A stretch of 11,672 nt of DNA from a virus (Duplodnaviria > Heunggongvirae > Uroviricota > Caudoviricetes): IMG/VR virus record IMGVR_UViG_2879770953_000002, positions 1 through 11,672 of that record; one strand, given 5' to 3'. Positions within the stretch are counted from its first letter, which is position 1, and every line of letters begins with the position of its first letter. The notes below the pieces were generated by a model. The model saw nothing but the letters and a program-made list of their open reading frames with translations. It did no database searches and had not been told where the DNA came from. The position numbers and the translations under genes are program-made. Below are positions 11,403-11,672 of the stretch, piece by piece.

Positions 11403-11672
11403 ATGCTGCCGCAGCATAGCGATATTGAAATAGCTTGGTATGCTTCGATACAGCAGGAGCCGAATGGCTGGAAGACCGTCACCACACAGTTCTACATCCA
11501 GGGATTCAGTGAGCATATTGCGCCACTTCAGGATGCTGTAGATCTGGAGATCGCAACGGAGGAAGAAAACTCGTTGCTGGAAGCCTGGAAGAAGTATCGG
11601 GTGTTGCTGAACCGTGTTGATACATCAACTGCACCTGATATTGAGTGGCCGGAAGAACCAGACACAATGTAA
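11403..11672 (+). pseudogene. tfa: tail fiber assembly protein (lambda Tfa-like) C-terminal fragment
   Basis: 89-codon ORF whose last 53 residues ([54 protein letters not shown]) match the conserved Tfa C-terminus. The frame is closed by TAA immediately upstream of the ATG (11400-11402) and the first 36 residues do not resemble a Tfa body, so this is a remnant rather than a full 190-aa tfa gene. Confidence 0.6.

Follow-up and report, generated by a model that had tools for sequence, protein, structure and literature searches.

Background

The prophage stretch analyzed here (the window, 11,672 nt in full) ends in a short open reading frame (ORF) of 89 codons whose product resembles the C-terminus of tail fiber assembly (Tfa) proteins. 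How did this fragment arise, and what does it have to do with the ipaH and methyltransferase genes that separate it from a second piece of Tfa-derived sequence? A preliminary description of the window had proposed that the two fragments bracket a single cargo module, composed of the effector gene and the methyltransferase gene, that was inserted or exchanged by recombination within tfa homology. Tfa proteins have a variable N-terminal domain that binds the fiber and a conserved C-terminal helical domain that mediates trimerization (North et al. 2019, as summarized in PMC9608196). Effector genes placed after tail-fiber genes at prophage ends are a well-known arrangement (PMC3530523). The features to which the analysis refers are as follows.

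8539-8718, plus strand: 59-aa ORF containing the left Tfa remnant; matched over its full length by phrog_7784; approximately 8560-8650 is an internal fragment of a tfa of the Mu U/P1 U/P2 G type.

8719-10362, minus strand: gene for a 547-aa E3 ubiquitin ligase of the ipaH family of type III secretion system (T3SS) effectors; Pfam NEL (E = 6e-77) and LRR_TTSS; corresponds to ipaHe in the syntenic EIEC locus.

10638-10670, no strand assigned: terminator hairpin of the kind found 3' of tfa in relatives, from alignment with the tfa ends of Rb-50, K-12 tfaD, a P2-like prophage, lambda and Ayreon.

10678-11346, minus strand: intact gene for a 222-aa class I SAM-dependent methyltransferase; Pfam Methyltransf_12/23/25/11; phrog_2132 (E = 7.9e-157); homolog of ybcY.

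11347-11402, no strand assigned: divergent intergenic region of 56 nt between the methyltransferase gene and tfaX, with a Shine-Dalgarno (SD)-like AAGGGG at 11393-11398 and promoter-like hexamers on the minus strand.

11403-11672, plus strand: TfaX-type chimeric ORF of 89 aa; homolog of tfaX (b0563) of the E. coli K-12 prophage DLP12; phrog_2341.

11403-11506, plus strand: N part of this ORF (codons 1-35), from a 79-aa prophage gene family (phrog_3893) and not from tfa.

11507-11650, plus strand: C part, the 3' end of a lambda-type tfa (lambda Tfa residues ~141-188), encoding the conserved C-terminal helical domain.

11651-11672, plus strand: variable Tfa tail (..EEPDTM) and stop codon; the tails differ among tfaX copies.

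Identity of the ORF at 11403-11672

The ORF is complete and uncut by the end of the window, since its TAA stop occupies 11670-11672, the last three bases, and it is closed just upstream, as had been noted, by an in-frame TAA at 11400-11402 immediately 5' of the ATG. Residues 32-86 match positions 76-130/131 of the Pfam Caudo_TAP profile (PF02413) with E = 4.6e-26 and 92 bits (cut-off 22.1 bits), and residues 37-87 align with residues 128-175, the last 48, of the phage Mu Tfa protein U, for which a structure has been solved (5yvq_B; E = 8.9e-9). At the DNA level, homology to the tfa of lambda and to other full-length tfa genes begins with the third base of codon 35 (11507). This places the Tfa-derived part at residues 36-89, within one codon of the 53 terminal codons to which the preliminary description had assigned it. 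The first 35 residues are without Tfa similarity, and no Caudo_TAP match precedes residue 32; the first 36 had been called unrelated, which agrees with our searches to within one codon, and phrog_3893 matches this part instead. The possibility that the ORF begins an intact, unusually short gene of a family unrelated to Tfa was not borne out, the ORF being complete and its Tfa similarity holding in the profile search.

The profile of phrog_2341 covers the ORF from end to end (residues 1-86 of the ORF, 88-position profile, E = 8.1e-58), with protein identities of 75-98% to cluster representatives. DNA alignment revealed the same junction, at the position of window base 11507, in K-12 tfaX and in the Rb-50 and phage 2G7b copies. 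Together with the divergent ybcY-type methyltransferase gene, all three of the features by which we define the TfaX family (end-to-end profile match, K-12 junction, methyltransferase neighbor) are present. The NCBI annotation pipeline PGAP labels the EIEC copy, which is 99.8% identical, as a tail fiber assembly pseudogene lacking the N-terminus, and NCBIfam has no model for the ORF, for the 79-aa protein or for the DUF4376 protein. The ORF is very probably a chimeric gene remnant of the TfaX type, left as a scar by recombination at the right-hand end of a defective prophage. Such a remnant is ordinary and already known, being annotated in K-12, and is no new gene; in the literature we found tfaX only as a reference point for the region of the appY promoter.

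Origin of the N-terminal part

The 79-aa family phrog_3893 matches tfaX residues 3-36. Intact 79-aa genes were found in Klebsiella phage Kp4882-3 (L006:4004-4243) and in Citrobacter braakii (L021), in both cases just upstream of an umuD-like gene, and a Citrobacter portucalensis locus (L022) encodes the identical 79-aa sequence. In tblastn searches with the Citrobacter 79-aa protein, every tfaX copy was matched over its residues 1-37 (73-78% identity). What phage Ayreon has kept of the 79-aa gene, 51 codons interrupted by a stop, adjoins a deleted remnant of the methyltransferase gene and runs beyond the point at which tfaX turns to Tfa sequence. This layout appears to represent the pre-fusion arrangement and, because it extends past the junction, the methyltransferase gene and the 79-aa gene were probably adjacent before the fusion took place.

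Judging from these alignments, tfaX is a chimera in which the ribosome-binding site, start codon and 35 codons of the 79-aa gene are joined illegitimately to approximately codon 141 of a lambda-type tfa. All copies examined have the same junction, which argues for a single origin. The tfa terminator hairpin is repeated 3' of tfaX.

Distribution and layout of the methyltransferase-tfaX pair

The 174 nt specific to the tfaX junction (11347-11520) were present, at a coverage of at least 80%, in 3437 of 5426 complete E. coli genomes (~63%), with up to four copies per genome. Counting every complete E. coli genome with a match, 3821 in all, tfaX has ~4800 copies. The methyltransferase gene (10678-11346) is conserved at no less than 99% among E. 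coli, E. albertii, Shigella and isolated phages, and is a very widespread prophage moron. Its NCBIfam matches were far below the cut-offs, and a search of the literature on ybcY yielded nothing useful. Within the divergent intergenic region, a promoter-like site on the minus strand (11375-11347) has 10 of 12 matches, which is a consensus match only; the sites returned by a promoter and terminator scan were no more numerous than in shuffled sequence.

The pair was found in several settings. K-12 DLP12 has tfaD, ybcY (a methyltransferase pseudogene, minus strand) and tfaX; a lambdoid prophage of Rb-50 has stf, tfa, the methyltransferase gene (minus strand) and tfaX; and a P2-like prophage at ssrA (L013) has the fiber gene H, tfa, the methyltransferase gene (minus strand), tfaX and DinI (minus strand). 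The same triplet is carried by the isolated temperate phages 2G7b, ev243 and the PhiR series. The methyltransferase gene and tfaX are also divergent in K-12, Rb-50, L012/L013 and 2G7b, and in ipaH-free relatives the full 3' end of a tfa lies on one side of the methyltransferase gene and tfaX on the other. The locus of EIEC CFSAN029787, which is syntenic with the window, consists of J, lom, stf, DUF4376, ipaHe (minus strand), the methyltransferase gene (minus strand), tfaX, DinI (minus strand) and chromosomal btsS. S. flexneri SFBU1023 is 99.9% identical to window positions 9750-11672, and a Gly34 variant is common to both, so that the window itself probably derives from Shigella.

The ipaH block and its junctions

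The protein encoded at 8719-10362 scored 563.9 bits against the NCBIfam model IpaH_Shig (cut-off 550). On its far side, the ORF at 8539-8718 begins in sequence of the DUF4376 gene, whose stop and terminator region supplies the start and initial codons. Its Caudo_TAP match (E = 0.011, profile positions 66-98) falls below the cut-off, and tblastn hits to Mu U, P1/P7 U, P2 G and related Tfa proteins had identities of 55-73% and E values of ~3e-5 to 1e-3. The left remnant is thus a weaker but real Tfa fragment of the U/G type and the right one a fragment of the lambda type, in keeping with the two subtypes originally proposed. Alignment to full-length Tfa, which had been suggested as a check, located the right breakpoint at 11507 and the left fragment at ~8560-8650. 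It had also been argued that the fragments overlap in the conserved motif and are not two halves of one gene, and this is correct, because both cover profile positions 76-98. The left remnant is also bounded by illegitimate junctions, because homology to ipaH-free DUF4376 loci stops at ~8551-8559, inside the terminator region of the DUF4376 gene.

The ipaH block and the methyltransferase block meet at 10637/10638, at the 5' base of the hairpin, which is ~20 nt past the tfa end in relatives and outside the tfa coding sequence; in megablast searches, homology to ipaH-free loci begins at 10638. The 3' flank of the methyltransferase-tfaX block was found in 3432 of the 5426 genomes and the segment upstream of ipaH (10363-10637) in only 9. 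No direct repeats of at least 14 nt were found in the window between the left and right Tfa fragments, and nothing meaningful of that length was found between the 181-aa tfa (5982-6527) and tfaX. By these distributions ipaH and methyltransferase-tfaX are two independent blocks, with ipaH a separate addition.

The stf-DUF4376-remnant-ipaH 3' block occurs in 5-6 copies per EIEC genome, and the left remnant is identical in the ipaHb and ipaHd loci. The ipaHb, ipaHd and ipaHe loci share the left remnant block and differ in their right flanks, which are a pinE invertase pseudogene, DinI and methyltransferase-tfaX-DinI, respectively. For this reason the bracketing of ipaH by Tfa sequence, although both flanks in the window are indeed Tfa-derived, is particular to one locus and does not point to a general mechanism.

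Two further matches lie near this junction. The Rfam family CssrB (RF02799, Chromosome-encoded Shigella sRNA B) matched 10490-10669 on the plus strand with 230 bits (gathering score 76). The match straddles 10637/10638, with ~148 nt at its 5' end in the ipaH-linked segment (9 E. coli genomes) and ~32 nt at its 3' end in the terminator hairpin (~63%); if the transcript is real, CssrB would be a by-product of this junction. An exact match to GTATCGTTTTTTTANAG, which we take to be the MxiE-box consensus, is present at 10481-10497 on the minus strand, 119-135 nt upstream of the ipaH start, where none is expected by chance. It overlaps the 5' end of the CssrB match on the opposite strand, and suggests that this copy of ipaH is under the control of T3SS activity (MxiE/IpgC).

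Divergence of the Tfa-derived part

Compared with seven other loci, the methyltransferase gene diverges by 0.3-1.0%, the N part of tfaX by 1.9-8.7% and its C part by 6.2-18.2%. Synonymous divergence (dS) was 0.17-0.64 in the C part versus 0.01-0.03 in the methyltransferase gene. The C part in the window is closer in nucleotide sequence to full-length tfa genes (Rb-50, 97.2%; lambda, 96.5%; K-12 tfaD, 96.5%) than to the tfaX copies outside the Shigella/EIEC lineage with which it was compared (Rb-50, 93.8%; E. albertii, 91.7%; K-12, 87.4%; 2G7b, 84.3%). The C-terminal tails of tfaX copies (EEPDTM, ANPVRE, AVPVME, QQPVS and LIQP) are also found on longer Tfa proteins. This pattern is what would be expected if functional tfa genes had repeatedly exchanged sequence with tfaX by homologous recombination or gene conversion.

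Coding capacity of tfaX

TfaX has the conserved C-terminal domain of Tfa without the N-terminal fiber-binding domain (profile positions 1-75). It is not directly downstream of a fiber gene, being preceded by the divergent methyltransferase gene and ipaH, and the nearest fiber module ends at 8539. Since only the C-terminal helical (oligomerization) domain is kept and the fiber-binding domain is missing, a chaperone function is most likely absent.

The N part was found in 54 of the 120 top protein clusters. Fifteen of these 54, with 929 member sequences, have the full 86-89 aa. Another 35, with 893 members, are without the Tfa C-terminal motif as a result of nonsense changes, frameshifts or new junctions, and some half of the variants are thus decayed in this way. 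Decay is evident in the K-12 copy, shortened to 61 aa by a stop codon (TGG>TGA), and in the 2G7b copy, with a 7-nt deletion. A copy with only 75% protein identity (L011) is still 88 aa long, next to a decayed methyltransferase gene. The dN/dS of the N part was 0.23-0.78, calculated from the small number of 5-8 non-synonymous and 1-3 synonymous changes, too low to be decisive, and that of the C part was 0.11-0.51, where a low value can be inherited from functional tfa donors. An AlphaFold2 model built on a 17-sequence alignment had a mean pLDDT of 52.5, with only a helix-turn-helix tendency in the C part that was too weak to serve in a search for similar folds.

Other features of the window

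The window is itself recombinant. Positions 5701-6955 (a truncated fiber gene, the 181-aa tfa and the start of stf) are 93.8% identical to the ipaHb locus (L008), which also has baseplate J/gp47 and DUF2612 genes and the pinE pseudogene, and positions 6848 to 11672 are 98.8% identical to the ipaHe lambdoid locus (L002). The switch lies in the conserved N-terminal domain of stf (Pfam phage_tail_N). A 1-nt indel at ~7761 relative to the EIEC homolog shifts the C-terminal frame of stf, which is 428 aa in the window, ending at 7837; in EIEC its annotated length is 470 aa and it overlaps the DUF4376 gene.

Two-ORF transposases of the IS3 family are encoded at 666-1879 (minus strand) and 3043-4199 (plus strand). 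An ALIL frameshift pseudoknot lies at 1482-1598 and a putative integrase-like ORF fragment at 2207-3004 (minus strand). The IS3 elements and other sequences in 1-4200 truncate the upstream tail-fiber gene, which would fit a defective Shigella prophage riddled with IS elements. The ipaH copy in the window is intact. In loci of S. flexneri SFBU1023 and of 'E. coli' ECMA0423 (L014-L016; two copies of the locus in ECMA0423), ipaH is broken at ~9750-9758 by an insertion of ~1.3 kb with a 9-bp alignment overlap, presumably an IS element.

Discussion

Several readings other than a chimeric scar were weighed. The description from which we started treated ipaH and the methyltransferase gene as one module, inserted or exchanged by homologous recombination between the flanking tfa sequences. 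The Tfa origin of both flanks, the signs of recombination in the right patch and the usual placement of effector genes speak for it. It nevertheless seems quite improbable, as the methyltransferase-tfaX pair is an old unit that occurs without ipaH in ~63% of complete E. coli genomes while the ipaH-linked segment occurs in 9, an internal junction at 10637/10638 divides blocks of different distribution, and the two remnants are of different subtypes and have no repeat of at least 14 nt in common. Comparison with related loci carrying other cargo, which had been suggested as a test, gave no support to a unified module either: in ipaHb and ipaHd the left remnant stays with ipaH and the right flank is pinE or DinI. 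What survives of the idea of recombination within tfa homology is that the right patch behaves as a recombination substrate (6-18% divergence versus 0.3-1%). The junctions do not lie inside tfa homology as supposed, the Tfa edge of tfaX being an illegitimate join to the 79-aa gene and ipaH meeting the methyltransferase block at 10637/10638. An invertible tail-fiber segment of the Mu G/P1 C/e14 P type, with tfaX as its alternative tfa (U'), would accord with the U type of the left remnant, as found in such segments, and with the pinE invertase that adjoins ipaH at the paralogous ipaHb locus. Yet tfaX is on the same strand as the tail-fiber genes and is without the N-terminal Tfa domain, positions 5900-11672 contain no inverted repeats longer than 17 nt, and the syntenic EIEC locus continues with DinI and not with an invertase. 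This orientation, the lack of inverted repeats or crossover sites and the DinI gene downstream rule the segment out.

The other alternatives concern the product of the region. The Rfam family IS009 (RF02111) matched 11426-11629 on the plus strand with 129.2 bits, above its gathering score of 117, and would make the region a non-coding RNA and not a protein remnant. The same model, however, reaches 200-230 bits over the last 200 nt of full-length tfa genes (lambda, K-12 tfaD, Rb-50 and P2-like), and only the 3' ~120 nt of the hit are homologous. Because the model coincides with the 3' end of tfa coding sequence, the match reflects tfa-derived sequence, and we rejected the small RNA reading as very unlikely. 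A functional 89-aa protein, that is, an orphan Tfa oligomerization domain that hinders or assists tail-fiber assembly of co-resident or superinfecting phages or that acts with the methyltransferase, is somewhat easier to entertain. An SD-like AAGGGG precedes the ATG, many genomes have kept the frame (929 intact member sequences), which is unbroken in the window and in diverged copies, even where the methyltransferase gene has decayed (L011), and the predicted helix-turn-helix in the C part is as described for C-terminal domains of Tfa. We still consider a functional protein unlikely, given the loss of the C-terminal motif in 35 of 54 clusters, the disrupted copies in K-12 and in the isolated phage 2G7b, an N-part dN/dS that is not clearly below neutrality, the low confidence of the AlphaFold model, the lack of an NCBIfam model and the pseudogene call by PGAP. 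Most likely tfaX is a non-functional scar.

Reading tfaX as a chimeric scar, a possible course of events can be outlined from a handful of loci. The ancestral prophage end would have carried a tfa, its terminator hairpin, the methyltransferase gene on the minus strand and the 79-aa gene on the plus strand. In a single illegitimate crossover, the lambda-type tfa of another phage may then have been fused, near its codon 141, to the 79-aa gene at codon 35. The resulting ORF would owe its ribosome-binding site, start and first 35 codons to the 79-aa gene and its last ~54 codons to Tfa, with a second tfa terminator behind them. This junction, with the methyltransferase gene, would subsequently have spread in E. 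coli, Shigella and E. albertii through their lambdoid and P2-like prophages. Later, in the Shigella/EIEC lineage, the stf-DUF4376-U'-ipaH block may have displaced the left stf-tfa module up to 10637/10638.

The main effect of tfaX is probably passive, in that it would provide a patch of ~150 nt of tfa homology. Homologous recombination or gene conversion between this patch and resident or incoming tfa genes could reassort the DNA on both sides. We favor such a role because the C part diverges more than the methyltransferase gene and has full-length tfa genes as its nearest relatives. It also seems unlikely to us that tfaX is kept because it is useful, whether as a small protein that poisons or modulates the fiber trimerization of competitors or as a portable homology 'landing pad' selected in phage lineages. 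If it were, the landing pad would let cargo such as the methyltransferase gene, here together with ipaH, move behind any tail module that bears a tfa.

Comparison with known systems brings out what is particular to the locus. K-12 tfaX has the same chimeric junction, a divergent neighbor of the ybcY type and the hairpin in the 3' flank, with ~97% nucleotide identity over 10638-11649. Both genes are intact in the window, whereas K-12 has a truncated tfaX of 61 aa and a ybcY pseudogene; the left side is tfaD in K-12 and stf-DUF4376-U'-ipaH in the window; and the window C part is of another tfa allele type, being 87% identical to the C part of K-12 tfaX and 96.5% identical to K-12 tfaD. With full-length Tfa proteins (lambda Tfa, Mu U and P2 G) the ORF has the conserved C-terminal ~50 residues in common, but the N-terminal fiber-binding domain is replaced by 35 residues of the unrelated 79-aa protein and, unlike those genes, the ORF is not directly behind a tail-fiber gene.

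Exchangeable effector loci at the ends of lambdoid prophages of EHEC Sakai were reportedly described by Tobe and colleagues in 2006. As in effector and moron loci of that kind, oppositely oriented cargo lies between the tail-fiber module and the prophage end in the window, but the two cargo blocks of this locus differ independently in distribution, and its Tfa fragments are scars and not parts of a defined integration system. Fusions of Nu1 to Tfa, and aaaD/tfaD in DLP12, similarly place the C-terminal region of Tfa on unrelated N-termini through deletion or recombination. Those fusions are mostly rare or lineage-specific, whereas the tfaX junction is of single origin and is present in 63% of complete E. 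coli genomes. Among the protein clusters, Phage_Nu1 (PF07471) was combined with Caudo_TAP in P0084, P0070 and P0071, and Lambda_tail_I (PF06805) with Caudo_TAP in P0063; large deletions ending in the conserved tfa region therefore recur in defective prophages.

Conclusions

The 'unrelated' N-terminus of tfaX can now be assigned an origin in a 79-aa prophage gene family, and the ORF is best annotated as a chimeric, pseudogene-like remnant and not as a tail fiber assembly gene. The recognition of ipaH as a separate block, common to the ipaHb and ipaHd loci, is relevant to the spread of ipaH paralogs among Shigella/EIEC prophages. The locus illustrates how conserved 3' ends of tfa may serve as recombination linkers, with one methyltransferase cassette found behind lambdoid, P2-like and ipaH-bearing tail modules.
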